Positions 15,064 to 51,548 are shown, counted from the first letter of the stretch. The stretch is DNA of 64,000 nucleotides from Promethearchaeota archaeon (GCA_048939015.1 JBHLPW010000002.1:64001-128000); one strand, 5' to 3'. Numbers and translations are program-made. Notes: generated by a model from the sequence alone, not told the origin.

Positions 15064-15510
15064 GTGAACCTAAGAATGGAAAAAGACTTAAAAAAAATTG
15101 AAAAAATAATAAGTAACTTAGAGCTAAATTCTAAATCACATATCAAGGAATTATTAAATAATTTCTTGCAAACTCATCTTAAGCGGAGTAAAGTGGATAA
15201 TTTCATAGGAGATTATCCTACATTTATAGAACCCGTCCATTTAGAAGATAATGTTAAAATAGGTGACGATGTACTCTTAGGACCAAATGTATATATTGGA
15301 AAAAATACAGAAATAAAGGATTATGTAGAAATTTCAAACTCAATTATCTTCGATAATGCTATAATAGCCGAAAACATTAAGATGGATAAATGTATTATTG
15401 GTAAAGATGTTTCTTTAACAAGTCAAAATATTAGTATAGATAATTGTGTGGTAATTGGAAATGTGTCAACAAAAGAAGAACTTTATAAGATTATGTATAA
15501 GTTTAAGTAA
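15064..15510 (+). CDS. Left-handed beta-helix (hexapeptide repeat) protein resembling the C-terminus of NDP-sugar synthases
   Basis: PVHLEDNVKIGDDVLLGPNVYIG..T.I...V.I.NSII hexapeptide pattern. Confidence 0.75.
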   Translation: MNLRMEKDLKKIEKIISNLELNSKSHIKELLNNFLQTHLKRSKVDNFIGDYPTFIEPVHLEDNVKIGDDVLLGPNVYIGKNTEIKDYVEISNSIIFDNAIIAENIKMDKCIIGKDVSLTSQNISIDNCVVIGNVSTKEELYKIMYKFK

Positions 15511-15552
15511 GTCTTTGCAAACTGATAGATTTCTTATCCTAGATTAAATATA

Positions 15553-16377
15553 GTGATTCTTATGAATGAAGAAAAATATTTTAAGACAAATCTAAAAAGA
15601 TGGAATGAACTTGTAGATATTAACGCTAAATCTAAATCTTATGATTTACCTGGTTTTTTAGAGGGAAATTCATCTTTATTTCCTATAGAGGTTGAGGAAA
15701 TAGGAGATGTTAAGGGAAAATCATTATTACATCTACAATGCCATTTCGGAATGGACACACTTTCATGGGCAAGATTAGGAGCAAAAGTTACTGGTGTAGA
15801 CTTTGCAGACAAAGCGATAGAGTTAGCAAAAGATTTGAGTAATAAATTAAATATCCCTGCAAAGTTCATACTTTCAAATGTTTATAATGTACTTCAAATT
15901 TTAAATGAAAAATTCGACATTGTTTTTACATCGTATGGAACAATTTGTTGGTTACCTGACCTAGTTCAATGGGCTCAAATAATCAGCGAATGCTTAAATC
16001 CAGGTGGTTTTTTTTATATAATCGATGGGCATCCTTTTGGCTTTATAATTGATGAAAAGCAAGAACCTTTTAAAGTAGGTTTCAATTATTTTTCTGAGGG
16101 AAAACCGATATTCTTCGATGAAGGGACCGCCTATGCAGATCCTTTAGCAGATCTAAAGAATCAAGCAGCATATGAATGGGACCATCCTATGAGTGAAATT
16201 ATAAATTCCTTAATTAATGCAAATTTAGAAATAGATTTTCTTCATGAATTCCCATTCACATTCTTTAGCATACATCCAGATATGAAAAAAAGGGAGGACA
16301 GATATTGGGAATTTAAAAACTATGAATTTACCATTCCTATGATGTTTTCAATTAAAGCTCATAAGAAAATAATTTAA
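15553..16377 (+). CDS. Class I SAM-dependent methyltransferase
   Basis: LHLQCHFGMDTLSWARLGA.VTGVDF; FDIVFTSYG. Confidence 0.9.
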   Translation: MILMNEEKYFKTNLKRWNELVDINAKSKSYDLPGFLEGNSSLFPIEVEEIGDVKGKSLLHLQCHFGMDTLSWARLGAKVTGVDFADKAIELAKDLSNKLNIPAKFILSNVYNVLQILNEKFDIVFTSYGTICWLPDLVQWAQIISECLNPGGFFYIIDGHPFGFIIDEKQEPFKVGFNYFSEGKPIFFDEGTAYADPLADLKNQAAYEWDHPMSEIINSLINANLEIDFLHEFPFTFFSIHPDMKKREDRYWEFKNYEFTIPMMFSIKAHKKII

Positions 16378-16384
16378 AAAATAA

Positions 16385-17200
16385 TTACATATTTTTTGGT
16401 TTCTTTCCTATAAACAAACCATTTATCCCTGTAATCTCGAATTTAGAGTTTTTTTCAAGTATGTTTGAAATACCTTCCTCAACTTGAGGTTTTATTTTTT
16501 GAAAAGAAGGATATTTTTCTTTAGGATACATACTCTCAATGTATTTTATCAATGGAGCTAAAGAAGTAATAGATACTTGATTAATATACTCTTCAAAAAA
16601 AATATCTGAAAAATAAGGTTTTAGGACATTTCTCCCCGTTTCATTTCTGAATTCACTAAATAATTTTAATTTCTCGTCTGTATATAATCCAAATTTAGAA
16701 AGAAAGTCTTTTAATTCTTTAATATGATTTCTACTAATAGTTGTAGAGATAAATCTGCCACTTGGTTTCAACACACGACTTATTTCTACAAGAGCTTTAT
16801 CAATATTTGGAATGTGATATAACATATGACACCCTAATACAACGTCAAAATTATGATTTCTGTAAGGAATTTTCTGTGCATCTATAACTTTGAAATTTAT
16901 TGGCAGATTGATTGATTCTAAATTCTCCTTAGCTTTATTCAACATTTTTTGAGAAAAATCAGATAACACAATTGAACAGGTCGAAGGAATTTTTTTATAA
17001 TTTTCGAGCCAAATTTGACCTGTTCCACATCCTAATTCTAATACTCTTTCGTTTTCTTTAAGTTGAATTCTTGAAAAAATCCACTTCGGTAAGGTTTCGG
17101 GATTTGATCCATATGACCAAAGGTTCATTCGGTTAGTTAAGTTTTCATGAGAGTTATATTGTAATTTTGCATATTCCTTAACAGATTTATTATTTTTCAT
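16385..17200 (-). CDS. Class I SAM-dependent methyltransferase
   Basis: VLELGCGTG, FDVV...HMLYH, RVLKP.G. Confidence 0.9.
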   Translation of the reverse strand: MKNNKSVKEYAKLQYNSHENLTNRMNLWSYGSNPETLPKWIFSRIQLKENERVLELGCGTGQIWLENYKKIPSTCSIVLSDFSQKMLNKAKENLESINLPINFKVIDAQKIPYRNHNFDVVLGCHMLYHIPNIDKALVEISRVLKPSGRFISTTISRNHIKELKDFLSKFGLYTDEKLKLFSEFRNETGRNVLKPYFSDIFFEEYINQVSITSLAPLIKYIESMYPKEKYPSFQKIKPQVEEGISNILEKNSKFEITGINGLFIGKKPKNM

Positions 17201-45224: not shown

Positions 45225-46805
45225 GTGTCTCAGACAGGAGAAGTTAAAAAAGACATAGGTAGTTTAATTTCAAGAGGAGATACAGGTGCATTAACTATTG
45301 GAGCTCAATGTCATGATCATGTAATGTATCTTACAAAATCACCTGCTAAAAAATTCTATAGTGATTTTGCCTTTAATTATGAAATGGGTGAGATAGTAGG
45401 GCGTTATTATAATTTAGATAGTCCCGCAGGAGGTCATGATATATATGATCTTGAAGTAGAAGCATTAGGTGGAAAGTTAATTTATGGTGAAAATTCGATG
45501 CCTACTATTGATTTTCGTGAACCATTAATTAAGAGTCCAGAAGATCTTAAAAAACTGAAAATGAAAAAAGTTGATTTCCATACAGCTGGTCGATATCCGT
45601 CATTAATGAAGTCGGGTGGATTAGTACAAGCCGATATGGCAATGGTTTCTTTTTGTTCACCCTTTAGTTTAGCTGTAGGATTGATGGGGTTTCCAGCACT
45701 TATTAAAGCGATGAGGAAACACCCAGATTTCGCTCATGATGTATTTAAATTTATCGTTGATGATGTATTAACCCCTTCGATTAAAGCTCAAAATGAAACT
45801 ATGGATGCTCTCATGGGAGTGGGAGCTGATGCTTGGGCTTGTGTACCAAATTTATCTCCGAAAGAAATGCAAGAATGGGTAGTCCCTTATAATCAAAGAC
45901 TTGAGGAGAACGTAAAAAAAATCGGAGTCACCACTATGAATGTAAGTGGGGATTATTGTGAAGAAAGGATAGAAAAATTTGATCCTAAAATCCTTCATGA
46001 TAGTTTTGATGTAGAAATTGCTAGCATGGGAGGAACTCCTGCCATATTTTTAGGTATGGGACGTTGGCATGAGTATCCCCTTGAAGCAGTTCGAAATTAC
46101 ACAGAAAAATTTCGCAAAAAAGGAATTCCTGTGACTGTAACTGCAGGTATAAACGCCCGATTACTACGTGATGGTCCAATTGATAAAATTGTAGATACTG
46201 TTAAGAGATATATTGATGCTTTTGCTCGTGATCATAATTTAAGTATTTTCCTCATGAATGTACCATATGATACTCCATCAGCTCATATTCATGCTGCTGT
46301 AGCTGCTACTCATACATATGGAAAATTACCGATCGCAAATAACTTGGATGACATAAATTTTGTGCTGCCAAAGAGAGAGTCTTTTGATGAATGGGTAAAT
46401 ACTGAAGAGGCGAAGAAAAAACCTCCAAAAGAAAAAGAGAGAAGGGGTCTAGCAGGATTACTATGGGGACAAATGGGGAAAATTAATAATAACCCTAAAT
46501 TTAAGGAACTATATGCAGATGCAAAGATGAGCTTCTTATATAATCTCACTGACCAACGATATGGTGCTTTAATTAAGGTAGAAAATGGAAGATTGGAAGT
46601 AGAACATGTGAGGAATGATGAGGAGACATTAAAAAGTCTGAAGGTAGATGCTTTACTCGCATGTCCAGCAGGTTTATTTTTTGATTTTAGTGCTGGTAAA
46701 TTATCTAAAGTTGCTATGATAGGTAAAATGCTTACTGGCAAGCTAAAAGTGAAAGGAGCGAAAAAAATGAAAGAACTGGGAAATATAATGGCTCTAATGA
46801 GCTAA
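45225..46805 (+). CDS. UroD/MtaA-family (corrinoid methyltransferase-like) protein with a C-terminal SCP2-like domain
   Basis: EVEALGG.L, GR.P, SPFSLA..L.G, P.F.H TIM-barrel motifs; C-terminal ~110 aa ending ML.GKLKVKG typical of SCP2; GTG start 1 nt after the corrinoid gene. Confidence 0.78.
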   Translation: MSQTGEVKKDIGSLISRGDTGALTIGAQCHDHVMYLTKSPAKKFYSDFAFNYEMGEIVGRYYNLDSPAGGHDIYDLEVEALGGKLIYGENSMPTIDFREPLIKSPEDLKKLKMKKVDFHTAGRYPSLMKSGGLVQADMAMVSFCSPFSLAVGLMGFPALIKAMRKHPDFAHDVFKFIVDDVLTPSIKAQNETMDALMGVGADAWACVPNLSPKEMQEWVVPYNQRLEENVKKIGVTTMNVSGDYCEERIEKFDPKILHDSFDVEIASMGGTPAIFLGMGRWHEYPLEAVRNYTEKFRKKGIPVTVTAGINARLLRDGPIDKIVDTVKRYIDAFARDHNLSIFLMNVPYDTPSAHIHAAVAATHTYGKLPIANNLDDINFVLPKRESFDEWVNTEEAKKKPPKEKERRGLAGLLWGQMGKINNNPKFKELYADAKMSFLYNLTDQRYGALIKVENGRLEVEHVRNDEETLKSLKVDALLACPAGLFFDFSAGKLSKVAMIGKMLTGKLKVKGAKKMKELGNIMALMS

Positions 46806-46814
46806 TTTTTTTTT
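46806..46814 (+). terminator. Oligo-T terminator candidate
   Basis: T9 directly after the stop, between convergent genes. Confidence 0.45.
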
Positions 46815-46849
46815 ATTATTATTTTTTATATAAAAAGAAGATGGTATAT

Positions 46850-47353
46850 TTATTCGATTTTTTTTATATCTCTTTTAAGAATTTTACCTAAAACTGCTCC
46901 AAGAACGGAAATACCTACCCCAATAAATGGAAGATAAAGCCCTGCTTGAATTTCATATGTACTCCAAAAGTTCATATTGGTATGTGAATAAAAACCATTT
47001 TGTATTCCTAAAATATATCCGATCAAAGTACTTAACTCTAAGAGTGCCAATATAATCCACAGATGTTCATTTTTAATAAAGACTTTTCTTCCTCTGTAAT
47101 CCAAAATTGCACTAATAATAAATAAAGCAGAACTTAAAGCTATTAGAATTGTAGTGATAATACTAGGAATAAACATTTCATTCGGTAACCAATCTAGCAC
47201 ATCGCCTGCTGTTACATGACGAATCCTTCCATTAATCCAAATATACTCTATCCAAGGCGAAGGACTATACCATACTGGAAACATAAACACCAGTAGAGAG
47301 ATTATTCCTCCTACTATAGGTAAGAGACAATTTAATTTCTTTATTTTGCTCAA
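46850..47353 (-). CDS. Four-TM membrane protein of unknown function
   Basis: Four hydrophobic segments; TTG start after GAGG. Confidence 0.75.
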   Translation of the reverse strand: MSKIKKLNCLLPIVGGIISLLVFMFPVWYSPSPWIEYIWINGRIRHVTAGDVLDWLPNEMFIPSIITTILIALSSALFIISAILDYRGRKVFIKNEHLWIILALLELSTLIGYILGIQNGFYSHTNMNFWSTYEIQAGLYLPFIGVGISVLGAVLGKILKRDIKKIE

Positions 47354-47411
47354 GATTTTAATTCCTCATTTATTTGTGCGATTTTATTATTTTTGATTTT
47401 TTTACAATTGA

Positions 47412-47470
47412 ACATGAAAATTCATAATTTATATTTAAATTTTAATCAGAATCACATGAAAATTCATAAT
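47412..47470. promoter_or_regulatory. Pair of identical 17-bp boxes (ACATGAAAATTCATAAT), putative transcription-factor operators
   Basis: Exact direct repeat at 47412-47428 and 47454-47470 (42-bp period), each with the dyad ATGAA-N2-TTCAT, in the divergent intergenic region before hdrA. Confidence 0.6.
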
Positions 47471-47597
47471 AATTGAGTTTTAATAATATAGACTATTTAC
47501 TTTATCATTAGTATTTCTGGGATTATTATGAAAAACTAATCCAAGAAATAATCGATCTGTAAAAGTTAGGAGGTTAGACTAACTAAAGGTGAGAGAT

Positions 47598-49574
47598 ATG
47601 TCTGATAAACAGACCAATGAAAACAATAACGAAGATCAACCAAGAATAGGTGTGTTCGTATGTCATTGAGGTATCAATATCGCAGGAATCTTAGACATAC
47701 CAAAGATAGTCGAAGAAATAAATAAATTAGAAAATGTTTGGGCTTATCCATATTTATCATTATGTACTGAAGGTGGTTCCACCGTGATCAAAGAAAAACA
47801 TGAAGAAGTTAATTTTAATAGAGTTTTGGTCGCTGCTTGCACTCCAAAAACACATCAGCCTGTTTTCCATGCAATATTAACAGAGATGGGGTTACCTCCA
47901 AGATACTTAGAATTTGTAAACATTCGAGAACATTGTTCTTTTGTACATCAAGCTCCAGAAGTACGTGAAAAGGCTGCTCTAAAAGCAATTGAATTAATTA
48001 AAGCGGGGATTGCCAGAGCAAAATTATTAGAAGATGTCCCTACAAAAACAGTACCAGTAGAACCAGCAGCTTTAGTTGTAGGTGGAGGAATTGCTGGTTT
48101 GTCTACCGCTATAGATTTAGGTGATGCGGGATATAAAGTCTATTTAGTTGAAAAAAATACGACTATAGGAGGACGTATGTCCCAACTTGATAGAACTTTC
48201 CCTACAGATGATTGTTCTATATGAATATTGGGACCAAAAATGCTTGAAGCTAACCGCCATCCAAATATAGAAATCTTATCTTATAGCGAAGTAAATGAAA
48301 TTGATGGATATATTGGGAATTTTGAAGTTAAGGTAAGAAAGAAGGCTCGATTTGTTCTTGAAGATAAATGCACGGGTTGTGGTACATGTACAGATGTTTG
48401 CCCCGTTTACATAAGTAATTACTTTGATGAACATCTTTCAGCAAGAAAAGTCATCGATATTGCATTTGCACAAGCAGTTCCCGCAATATCACAGCTGGAT
48501 AGAACAGCATGCATCGAATGTTTTGCATGTGTAGATGCTTGCGAGCAATCTGCAATAGATTTTAGTCAGCAGGATGAGATAATAGAACTCAAAGTAGGTA
48601 CAATAATAGTTGCCACTGGTTGGGATCTCTATCAAGGAGATGATTATGGTTATGGTACTTATGATAACGTTATTAATCAAATAGAATTAGAGAGAATACT
48701 TGCTCCAAATGGTCCAACTTATGGTCATCTAAAGCGTCCATCTGATGGTAAACGTCCAACCAAGGTTTTATTCATCAACTGTGTTGGATCAAGGGATGTA
48801 AGTAAGAATGCTCACTGCAGTGTTATCTGTTGTAATCTTTCCCTGAAAAACTCAAAATTAATTAAATCTGAGTACCCTGATTCGCAAATAGTTTGTTGTT
48901 ACATAGATATGAGATGTGCAGGAAAAGATTATGAAGAATACTATAGAAGATCTCGAGATGCGGGAATAATCTTTGTTAAAGGATTAGTTGGAAAAATTGA
49001 AGAAGATCCTCTAACAAAAAACCTTACTGTTCAATTTGAACCTGTTGGAACGGACTCAGTAGTTACTATGGAATTCCATATGGTAGTATTATCACCTGCT
49101 TCACTCCCATCTCAAGGAACAGTTGAAATTGCAAAAGTATTAAACATGGAAAAAAGTCCCGATGGATTTTTAAAAGAATATCATGCTCGTTTGGATCCAA
49201 TTAGTACAAAAGTACCTGGAATTTATATTTGCGGTTCTGCTCAAGGTCAGAAAGAAATCGATAAAGCAGTAAGTCAAGCAAGAGGAGCTGCATCAGTAGC
49301 AGGGATTCCTATGGGTAAGGGAGAATATACTATGGAACTAATTCGAGCAACTCCTTCGGATGAAAGATGCGCTAAATGCTATAAATGTATTGAAGCCTGT
49401 CCTTATTCTGCGATTTCTGTAAATGAACAAGGCAATATAGTTGTTAACCTTATTAATTGTCGAGGTTGCGGTACTTGTGCTTCATTATGCCCTTCAAAAG
49501 CAATTGAATTAACATACTTTAGAGATGATCAATATATGGCATTAGTTGACGAATTATTACCAATGGAGGAATAA
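47598..49574 (+). CDS. hdrA: Heterodisulfide reductase subunit A, selenoprotein (658 aa; Sec24 and Sec209)
   Basis: One frame from ATG 47598 (AGGTGA RBS) to TAA 49572-49574 with in-frame TGA at 47667 (RIGVFVCH-U-GINIAG) and 48222 (TFPTDDCSI-U-ILGPKM), both at conserved HdrA Cys positions; joins ORF-track pieces 47784-48224 and 48228-49574. Confidence 0.95.
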
Positions 49575-49587
49575 AGAGGTAATTAAA

Positions 49588-50046
49588 ATGGCTGAAGATA
49601 ATGATATTAAAATAATAGTATTTGCTTGCTGGAAATGAGGTTATGGTTCAGCGGATATGGCAGGGACTATTCGAGCCCAATATCCGGATTCGATTAGAAA
49701 CGTATTAGTGCCTTGCTCAGGACGTGTAGGACCAGATCTAATTATGCGAGCATTTGGAAGAGGTGCAGATGGTGTCGTTATTAATGCTTGATATCCTGGT
49801 GAATGCGATTATGAGACAGGAAATTACCATGCATATAGACAGGTTGAATATATAAAAGAAATCTTAAAAGTAGTCGGTATAAGTCCTGATAGGTTAAAAA
49901 TAATCTATTGCACCGCTGCTGAAGGTCAGAAATTTCAAAATGAGGCTATTGAAATCGATAAAACAATCCGTAAATTAGGACCAAGTCCTTTACATACAAA
50001 AGGCACACCTAAAAAAGAAAAAGCTAAAGCGAAAGCTAAAGCTTAA
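49588..50046 (+). CDS. mvhD: MvhD/VhuD [2Fe-2S] subunit, selenoprotein (152 aa; Sec17 and Sec68)
   Basis: Absent from ORF track. MAEDNDIKIIVFACWK-U-GYGSADMAG...PCSGRV...GADGVVINA-U-YPGECDYETGN...CTAAEGQKF...LGPSPL; TGA at 49636 and 49789; GAGGT RBS. Confidence 0.95.
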
Positions 50047-50052
50047 AAAATA

Positions 50053-50126
50053 ATGTGTTGACTGATGAAGCTGAGTTAAAAAAAATGAGAACTCAGCTGA
50101 AGAAATGGGTGCACCATATAACACAT
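50053..50126 (+). ncRNA. SECIS element (eukaryote-like / Lokiarchaeia type), cis-acting mRNA structure
   Basis: Helix 1 ATGTGTTG (50053-60) / TAACACAT (50119-26); core ATGA (50065-68) ... GA (50099-100); perfect 9-bp helix 2 AGCTGAGTT / AACTCAGCT; A8-containing apical loop; starts 6 nt after the mvhD stop. Confidence 0.9.
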
Positions 50127-50225
50127 AAAAAAGTAATAATAAAATATAAAAAAAAATCAAAAATTTGATTCATAAATTTGGAAAATTTAAAAAATAGTTT
50201 AGTATATAGTTAGAGTTGGAATTTC

Positions 50226-51365
50226 ATGGAAGTCATAGCAGAATACTTAATAAAGATTGAAGATTTTCCTAAGATCTTAACAACTTTATTAAAGGAAAAA
50301 GCTGTAGATAAATTCATAGGTGCTGAACTTAGGGTGGATAAAAAATCTGGTGCTATAGACCGATTTACTGTTCAGCCTAAATTAGCAGAAAAAGAGGAAG
50401 ATGTTAAAGATTTTCCTTTAACTCCTCTAATTGCATTTGGATACGCAAGAACAGACTCGGCTTCAAAGTATCTGCATAAATCAGTTGCAGGTGCGATGAA
50501 TGAAAAAGTAGGATTGGTTGCTCGTCCGTGCGACACAAGAGCCCTAATAGAACTTGCAAAGATTCGACAAGTAAACCTAGACAATCTCTTTGTGATTGGT
50601 ATTGAAGATCGGGGAATGCTTCCAAAAGCAGGACGAGAAATGAAAGCGATTAAGGATGTTGATCCAACTAAAATTGTGAAAGAAAAAGTAGGCGATACTG
50701 GTCTTATCGTGAAAATGGAAGATGGAAGCACAAAAGAGCTTAATCTTACTGTAGCAGAAAATTGTTTAAGATGCTATCGTAAAATTCCTGTAGTCGCTGA
50801 TTTAACTGTGAGTGATCTTGGAATTCCAGTTGATTCGGATGAGATAATCCTAAAAGTTTATTCAGATAAAGGGAGTGAAATTTTAGATAAATCAGGAATT
50901 AGTAAAAAACCTCTCCCCGATAAAGAAAAAAAAGCTCATTCAGATAAATATAATGAAATAATCGAAAAAGCAAAAGAAAAACGAGCAAAAGATTTGGAAG
51001 AATGGGATACACTTTCACAAGATGAAAAAATTGCTGAACTTCTTAAATGTACAATGTGTAACACTTGTATTCGTGGTTGTCCTGTTTGTTATTGTGTGGA
51101 TTGCATATTAATGAAAAAGAGAAAGGATAAAGCTATTGATAAAGCAACATATCAATTAACGAGAGTAGCTCATGATGCTGATCGCTGTGTTGAGTGTGGG
51201 AACTGTGATAATAATTGCCCTCAAAATTTACCTCTTTCGCTCTATTTTCAATCTTTGAATGAAGCTTTTAAAGAAAAGTTTGGTTATGAGGCAGGGATGT
51301 CTCTCGAAGATATTCCATTTCGATCTGGAAAAGCAATTTCTCAGATGGAATTAGAGAAAACATAA
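50226..51365 (+). CDS. FdhB/FrhB-like Fe-S protein (F420 dehydrogenase beta-subunit family)
   Basis: VARPCD.RALIELAK.RQVNLDNL..IG; CLRC; CTMCNTCIRGCPVCYCVDC; H...RCVECGNCDNNCP. Confidence 0.82.
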   Translation: MEVIAEYLIKIEDFPKILTTLLKEKAVDKFIGAELRVDKKSGAIDRFTVQPKLAEKEEDVKDFPLTPLIAFGYARTDSASKYLHKSVAGAMNEKVGLVARPCDTRALIELAKIRQVNLDNLFVIGIEDRGMLPKAGREMKAIKDVDPTKIVKEKVGDTGLIVKMEDGSTKELNLTVAENCLRCYRKIPVVADLTVSDLGIPVDSDEIILKVYSDKGSEILDKSGISKKPLPDKEKKAHSDKYNEIIEKAKEKRAKDLEEWDTLSQDEKIAELLKCTMCNTCIRGCPVCYCVDCILMKKRKDKAIDKATYQLTRVAHDADRCVECGNCDNNCPQNLPLSLYFQSLNEAFKEKFGYEAGMSLEDIPFRSGKAISQMELEKT

Positions 51366-51548
51366 GACTAATTATTTTAAATTCTTTATTTTATAATTTT
51401 ATTGAAATAATAAAGGTCCTTTTTAGAGAATTTCTTTTTTTTAACTTTTTTTGTAAAAAAATAGGTATAAATAGTGCAATTTTTTTATCAAATTTAAGAA
51501 AATTTACATAAAGTAAATCAAAAAGCTAAATAAGTTTATGAGAAATTT

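Follow-up and report, generated by a model that had tools for sequence, protein, structure and literature searches.

A single eukaryote-type SECIS element as the probable recoding signal of four UGA codons in a tandem hdrA-mvhD pair of a Promethearchaeota archaeon

Four in-frame UGA codons in a tandem hdrA-mvhD gene pair of a Promethearchaeota archaeon almost certainly encode selenocysteine (Sec), and a single distal eukaryote-type SECIS element located past mvhD appears to be the only detectable recoding signal for these four codons in two cistrons. That one element would serve all four UGAs had been proposed in a sequence-only reading of the window (the whole 64,000-nucleotide stretch of DNA that was analysed), and the proposal is supported by the lack of a second detectable element, by conservation in more than 30 loci and by covariation in the SECIS stem. 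The same interpretation is already stated in the literature, as it was published in 2016 (PMC4989117) and generalised in 2024 (PMC11227280). Judged from its sequence, the locus is probably a typical example of the Lokiarchaeial HdrA-VhuD(MvhD) tandem already in the literature, with its SECIS acting on four UGAs. The features of the locus are collected in Table 1.

Table 1. Features of the hdrA-mvhD locus, in window coordinates; the last row refers to another contig of the same genome.
Feature	Position	Strand	Detail
Promoter-like block upstream of hdrA	47465-47508	+	TATA-like TTTTAATAATATAG at 47478-47491
5' leader	47568-47592	+	Shine-Dalgarno-like AGGAGGT 47568-47574 and AAGGTGA 47586-47592; invariant columns in orthologue alignment
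hdrA	47598-49574	+	658 codons + TAA; ATG 47598, TAA 49572-49574
Palindrome/hairpin TGTCTG-ATAAA-CAGACC	47599-47615	+	overlaps hdrA start codon; invariant
hdrA UGA24	47667-47669	+	predicted Sec codon
hdrA UGA209	48222-48224	+	predicted Sec codon; canonical HdrA Sec site
hdrA-mvhD spacer	49575-49587	+	13 nt, AGAGGTAATTAAA; carries mvhD Shine-Dalgarno AGAGGT 49575-49580
mvhD/vhuD	49588-50046	+	152 codons + TAA; ATG 49588, TAA 50044-50046
mvhD UGA17	49636-49638	+	predicted Sec codon
mvhD UGA68	49789-49791	+	predicted Sec codon
lokiSECIS	50053-50126	+	three-armed fold; starts after mvhD
SECIS closing helix	50053-50060 with 50119-50126	+	
SECIS AUGA	50065-50068	+	21 nt past mvhD stop
SECIS main stem	50069-50077 with 50090-50098	+	9 bp, 9/9 Watson-Crick
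SECIS apical loop	50078-50089	+	12 nt, A-rich
SECIS GA	50099-50100	+	directly 3' of main stem
SECIS side hairpin ATGG-GTGCA-CCAT	50105-50117	+	
FrhB/FdhB-like iron-sulfur gene	50226-51365	+	Pfam FrhB_FdhB_C; no UGA
Sec-machinery cluster	G000:C77:10444-16816 (L063, L069)		EFSec-like gene, then tRNA-Sec 15344-15436, SepSecS 15515-16816

Structure and conservation of the SECIS element

The predicted fold of the SECIS is stable, with an energy of -20.8 kcal/mol (z -5.2) that none of 200 shuffled sequences reached. The AUGA motif lies 2398 and 1843 nt from UGA24 and UGA209 of hdrA and 429 and 276 nt from UGA17 and UGA68 of mvhD, which agrees with the distance of about 2.4 kb from the first UGA given by the sequence-only reading for a sole SECIS past mvhD. 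In orthologues the element is positioned 18-24 nt past the mvhD stop. AUGA is invariant in 33/33 orthologous elements and GA is present in 32 of them, the other (L020) displaying AA. The apical loop, which here opens with eight adenines (AAAAAAAA), is 11-13 nt long in the orthologous elements.

The full-element alignment of the 33 orthologous sequences has 95.5% of its cells paired and compensatory change at four pairs, while an alignment of 18 diverse SECIS cores, which comprises both sequence classes and three elements of the same genome not located beside hdrA-mvhD, reveals compensatory change at 9/9 stem pairs. Paired cells make up 93.8% of this core alignment; shuffles give 58%, and sliding the partner columns gives 35-48%. 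A MAFFT alignment mixing loop lengths was discarded because it set the two classes out of structural register, and rows of equal length were used instead.

A three-way junction, formed by the closing helix, the SECIS stem and the side hairpin 3' of GA, is observed in both hdrA-mvhD SECIS classes (50053-50126; L047-L049, L032-L039). The side hairpin appears in the consensus fold of the second class and shows one compensatory change. Most closing helices read CCGAA/UUCGG, and that of the pair on contig C32 looks, by eye, like CCCCU/AGGGG.

Type I SECIS elements of eukaryotes reside in the 3'-UTR, display an AUGA/GA kink-turn and apical AA, and are bound by SBP2. The element described here is similar in its AUGA/GA core, its unpaired apical adenines and its placement after the coding region, and its proposed action at a distance on several UGAs is comparable to that in SelP. 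In contrast, it would be carried by a prokaryotic, bicistronic mRNA with Shine-Dalgarno sites, and the extra side hairpin generates the three-way junction; the element also has no Rfam SECIS match at E<=10.

Search for a second recoding signal

No other AUGA-stem-A-loop-GA or -AA candidate was identified by a descriptor scan of the + strand from 47354 to 50046. Three covariance models, representing the full orthologous element (R1), the core of the other class (R2) and a general lokiSECIS core (R3), were run with filters off over the whole 64-kb window, and none of them produced a + strand match at E<=10 between 46850 and 50046. The known element is the sole R3 hit in the window (37.1 bits, E 4e-7), the next best score being 15.8 bits and located elsewhere. 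A scan of 46800-51500 against Rfam at E<=10 returned no SECIS family and nothing credible. The sequence-only reading had named a second functional SECIS within or upstream of hdrA as one of the findings that would overturn it, and neither these searches nor the synonymous-rate scan described below revealed one. R2 misses the SECIS of the window because its stem is G+C-richer than those of the other three pairs of the genome, which reflects the sequence divergence of the classes and not the absence of an element. An R1 match on contig C82 (23.9 bits), in ordinary sequence with no selenoprotein context, was taken as chance. A strict pattern scan of the whole genome recovered the element of the window only, since it did not tolerate the A+U-rich stems found in the other pairs, and was replaced by the covariance models.

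Synonymous rates were scanned in 29 orthologues by a model-free procedure normalised per amino acid. No synonymous constraint is associated with the UGAs, with observed/expected values of 0.87-1.15 in the windows starting at each of the four codons. The dips are limited to hdrA codons 1-20 (observed/expected 0.31, the one strong dip), the last ~18 codons of hdrA and both ends of mvhD, and those at the 3' end of hdrA and the start of mvhD coincide with the conserved stop-AGAGGT-ATG junction. Separately, a long-range pairing of AACACAU in the SECIS 3' arm with GUGUGUU just upstream of UGA24 was considered and dropped: it rests on one invariant Val codon within a conserved GVF peptide and, by eye, has no counterpart in the C76 pair, the sole other pair inspected.

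The dip at the start of hdrA, a threefold drop, is caused by the invariant motif TGTCTG-N5-CAGACC. This spaced pattern is matched in 30 loci and occurs twice in the 4.86-Mb genome, both times at the start of a Sec-type hdrA; the start codon beneath it varies, as ATG, GTG and TTG only. Its confinement to such starts, together with the drop that it causes, would fit a recoding signal of unrecognised kind belonging to hdrA itself, either the start-codon hairpin or another 5' element, in which case the SECIS would serve mvhD only. A 5' location has a parallel in Methanocaldococcus fdhA, whose SECIS is in the 5' UTR. Nevertheless, such a signal is quite unlikely here. As RNA the palindrome folds into a 5-bp hairpin of -5.0 kcal/mol in which neither kink-turn core, AUGA/GA or GAA/A, is present. 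It is missing from C70 and C32, half of the Sec-type hdrA genes of the genome, yet these contain 3-4 UGAs, and both the leader and the coding sequence of hdrA are unmatched by the three SECIS models. The palindrome is not regarded as a SECIS because of its missing core, its short stem and its absence from half of the Sec-type hdrA genes.

Probable selenocysteine positions in HdrA and MvhD

hdrA and mvhD occupy different reading frames of the same strand and are intact only if the four UGAs are read through, each of which replaces a conserved Cys. The arrangement outlined by the sequence-only reading, with UGAs in two frames on either side of a TAA stop, was confirmed at codons 24 and 209 of hdrA and 17 and 68 of mvhD. 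HdrA displays an FAD-binding and 4Fe-4S architecture in Pfam and aligns over its full length with solved HdrA structures (E 6e-205). U24 is aligned to a Cys column of the solved HdrA chains, while U209 is opposite an 'X' (unresolved residue) in the best-matching chain, which corresponds to the canonical Sec site. Similarly, MvhD belongs to the FlpD/MvhD family (Pfam, E 4e-42) and aligns over its full length with solved MvhD structures (E 2e-35), U17 and U68 both being aligned to Cys in the solved chains.

Both hdrA UGAs and the open frame are kept in 29 orthologues, and across 31 orthologous loci hdrA contains 2-4 UGAs and mvhD contains 2. The hdrA stop is TAA here and TAA or TAG, never TGA, in all related loci checked, as expected if any UGA on the hdrA-mvhD mRNA is read as Sec. 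Reassignment of UGA throughout the genome was rejected, as the same codon is the stop of other long genes in the window. Both hdrA and mvhD are broken up or overlooked by gene callers and should be listed as full-length selenoproteins.

Reading of the hdrA UGAs without any SECIS, through a near-cognate Cys or Trp tRNA or through context-dependent readthrough, would make the sharing of the element only apparent. The link between the SECIS and hdrA is drawn from sequence, and action over 1.8-2.4 kb across a stop codon is without an experimentally shown precedent, both of which leave some room for this explanation. It is nonetheless very unlikely: the UGAs are confined to redox Cys columns, one of them the canonical HdrA site, the 29 orthologues retain them as UGA, and UGA never serves as the hdrA stop in the loci checked. 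Regarding distance, Peiter and Rother (2022) described no strict UGA-SECIS limit in Methanococcus reporters (PMC9622424).

Transcript structure and upstream region

Action of the distal SECIS on hdrA supposes that both genes and the element share one mRNA. The 13-nt gap between the genes, claimed by the sequence-only reading to hold a ribosome-binding site only, proved exact in its coordinates, and is too short to hold a SECIS. AGAGGT lies directly 3' of the hdrA stop in 28 of the 29 alignment rows, with AGATGT in L006, and the spacers of orthologues measure 12-17 nt. The L015 spacer is listed as 28 nt with a match that begins six codons into mvhD, and the true spacer looks to be ~13 nt. Approximately 90-130 nt 5' of the hdrA start, the promoter-like block is nearly invariant in 28 orthologous loci, whose flanks are otherwise unalignable, which suggests that it is the promoter. 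No run of five or more T was found on the + strand between 49168 and 51400. The conserved promoter-like block, the conserved Shine-Dalgarno junction and the lack of an intergenic oligo-T lend indirect support to one mRNA spanning hdrA, mvhD and the SECIS. As no T5 run interrupts this region, the transcript may also continue into the FrhB/FdhB-like gene at 50226, and the SECIS would then be intercistronic and not strictly 3'-terminal. A bacterial promoter/terminator scan produced fewer sites than shuffles and is uninformative for an archaeon.

Separate transcription of the two genes, or decay of an hdrA cut short at UGA24, is extremely unlikely: a TATA-like CAATATATGG is located ~45 nt upstream of the mvhD start and the last 18 codons of hdrA change less at synonymous sites, but the conserved stop-plus-AGAGGT junction explains that constraint, no oligo-T terminator separates the genes, and the 658-codon frame is open in 29 orthologues save for its Cys-aligned UGAs, with normal synonymous turnover.

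Genomic context and selenocysteine machinery

The assembly comprises 4.86 Mb in 125 contigs with 30% G+C and is an estimated 95% complete. The loci closest to the pair belong to Promethearchaeota (Loki-type) metagenome-assembled genomes. Four Sec-type hdrA-mvhD pairs are present in the genome, with 2+2, 3+2, 4+2 and 2+2 UGAs, plus several all-Cys paralogues. One lokiSECIS is located just past mvhD in each of the four pairs, and in the C32 pair the AUGA of the SECIS also provides an in-frame UGA of mvhD. The layout of the pair in the window is therefore repeated in the three paralogous pairs of this genome and in 31 orthologous loci of other Loki-type genomes.

The genome encodes much of the machinery for Sec insertion. 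The gene for tRNA-Sec is directly upstream of SepSecS (477 bits), and an EFSec-like gene, whose 236 bits fall slightly short of the bacterial selB cut-off, is 4 kb away. Two selD genes score above the cut-off, and each contains one TGA. For PSTK there is one match of 30 bits, below the model cut-off, in a genome that is ~95% complete, and this counts against the preferred interpretation.

Three further lokiSECIS hits in this genome lie near other reading frames. An 82-aa frame (L054:1243-1491, + strand) contains one predicted N-terminal membrane helix, a GGGGUGC motif and one in-frame UGA, and a strong lokiSECIS match of 49.6 bits begins within 10 nt downstream of it (L054:1501-1540; G000:C121:12911-12950). 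The frame has no Pfam match and may represent a small selenoprotein outside the families named in the cited papers. On the - strand of L055, a lokiSECIS of 41.9 bits (L055:1501-1540; G000:C13:22382-22421) lies ~40 nt past a small zinc-ribbon-like CxxC...CxxC frame ending in TGA TAA, which could be a C-terminal Sec or a plain tandem stop. A third frame (L053:1514-1900, - strand; G000:C12) contains adjacent Sec residues (HADUUAD) and is followed by a lokiSECIS at 165126-165165, whose AUGA is inside the read-through frame. No Pfam family matched it at E<=0.1, and it resembles the two-Sec PrxL.1 of Mariotti et al. (PMC4989117).

Discussion

The pair conforms closely to the tandem described by Mariotti et al. 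(2016, Mol Biol Evol), in which HdrA-VhuD pairs share one lokiSECIS downstream of VhuD, up to six UGAs extend over ~2 kb of a presumed polycistronic mRNA, and HdrA is multi-Sec and never ends in UGA (PMC4989117). Here too the two genes share a strand, hdrA comes first, and the gap before vhuD is very short. HdrA again has more than one predicted Sec, among them that at the canonical site at ~200, two are predicted in VhuD, the stop of hdrA is UAA or UAG, and a single AUGA-9bp-A-rich-loop-GA element is positioned just past vhuD. The apical loop opens with a run of adenines, as specified in PMC4989117, and has 12 nt, against the 11 nt stated there; this departure and that in stem G+C are sequence-level variations and not a new kind of element. 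Huang, Xiao and Zhang (2024, ISME J) took the catalogue of such pairs to 227 Asgard genomes and found hdrA and frhD (mvhD) to be always neighbours and in almost all cases to share a single eSECIS-like structure of type I, the core variants being AUGA_GA and AUGA_AA (PMC11227280). Both variants are present in this genome, which differs in nothing of substance, and the locus would be one more entry for that catalogue. Compared with Methanococcales and Methanopyrus, the VhuD and HdrA proteins are orthologous, with the same VhuD Sec positions and the canonical HdrA site, and the SECIS is likewise outside the coding region. In contrast, according to the cited papers, HdrA of the methanogens contains a single Sec, and archaeal-type (GAA/A) 3'-UTR SECIS elements accompany hdrA as well as frhD/vhuD.

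The sequence of the locus suggests the following route to the two proteins. The upstream block at 47465-47508 would drive a single mRNA that extends from hdrA through mvhD and the SECIS, perhaps as far as the gene that follows. On this mRNA, ribosomes would finish hdrA at its UAA and start mvhD 13 nt further on at the AGAGGT Shine-Dalgarno site. The SECIS kink-turn, alone or through an adaptor, would recruit the elongation factor for Sec together with Sec-tRNASec; no SBP2 homologue is known in Asgard archaea (PMC4989117). The element would then act in cis on the four UGAs, which lie 0.3-2.4 kb away, in the manner of eukaryotic 3'-UTR SECIS elements. Production of full-length HdrA and MvhD would thus be selenium-dependent, with the Cys paralogues encoded elsewhere in the genome as possible back-ups. 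According to Peiter et al. (2025), lokiSECIS elements are known bioinformatically only, and a lokiarchaeal SECIS was not functional in Methanococcus maripaludis (PMC11881835), the latter result counting against this interpretation.

That a ribosome would meet UGA24 before the SECIS is transcribed, as raised by the sequence-only reading, is a fair question, but no special mechanism is needed to answer it, because the situation is common to every archaeal 3'-UTR SECIS and concerns only the first ribosomes on nascent mRNA. The start-codon palindrome offers one conceivable, though unlikely, solution: it might gate initiation as an RNA hairpin, or transcription as a selenium-responsive operator, so that ribosomes load only when the SECIS and a supply of Sec are at hand. 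If true, this would be a regulatory layer not described in the cited literature, and it would answer the timing puzzle of UGA24.

The locus introduces no new concept; it contributes one well-conserved example of the tandem, together with some negative search results that speak against a second, hidden signal. If an Asgard archaeon does recode the UGAs of two cistrons at long range from one shared eukaryote-like SECIS, as proposed here, this would bear on the origin of the eukaryotic Sec system.
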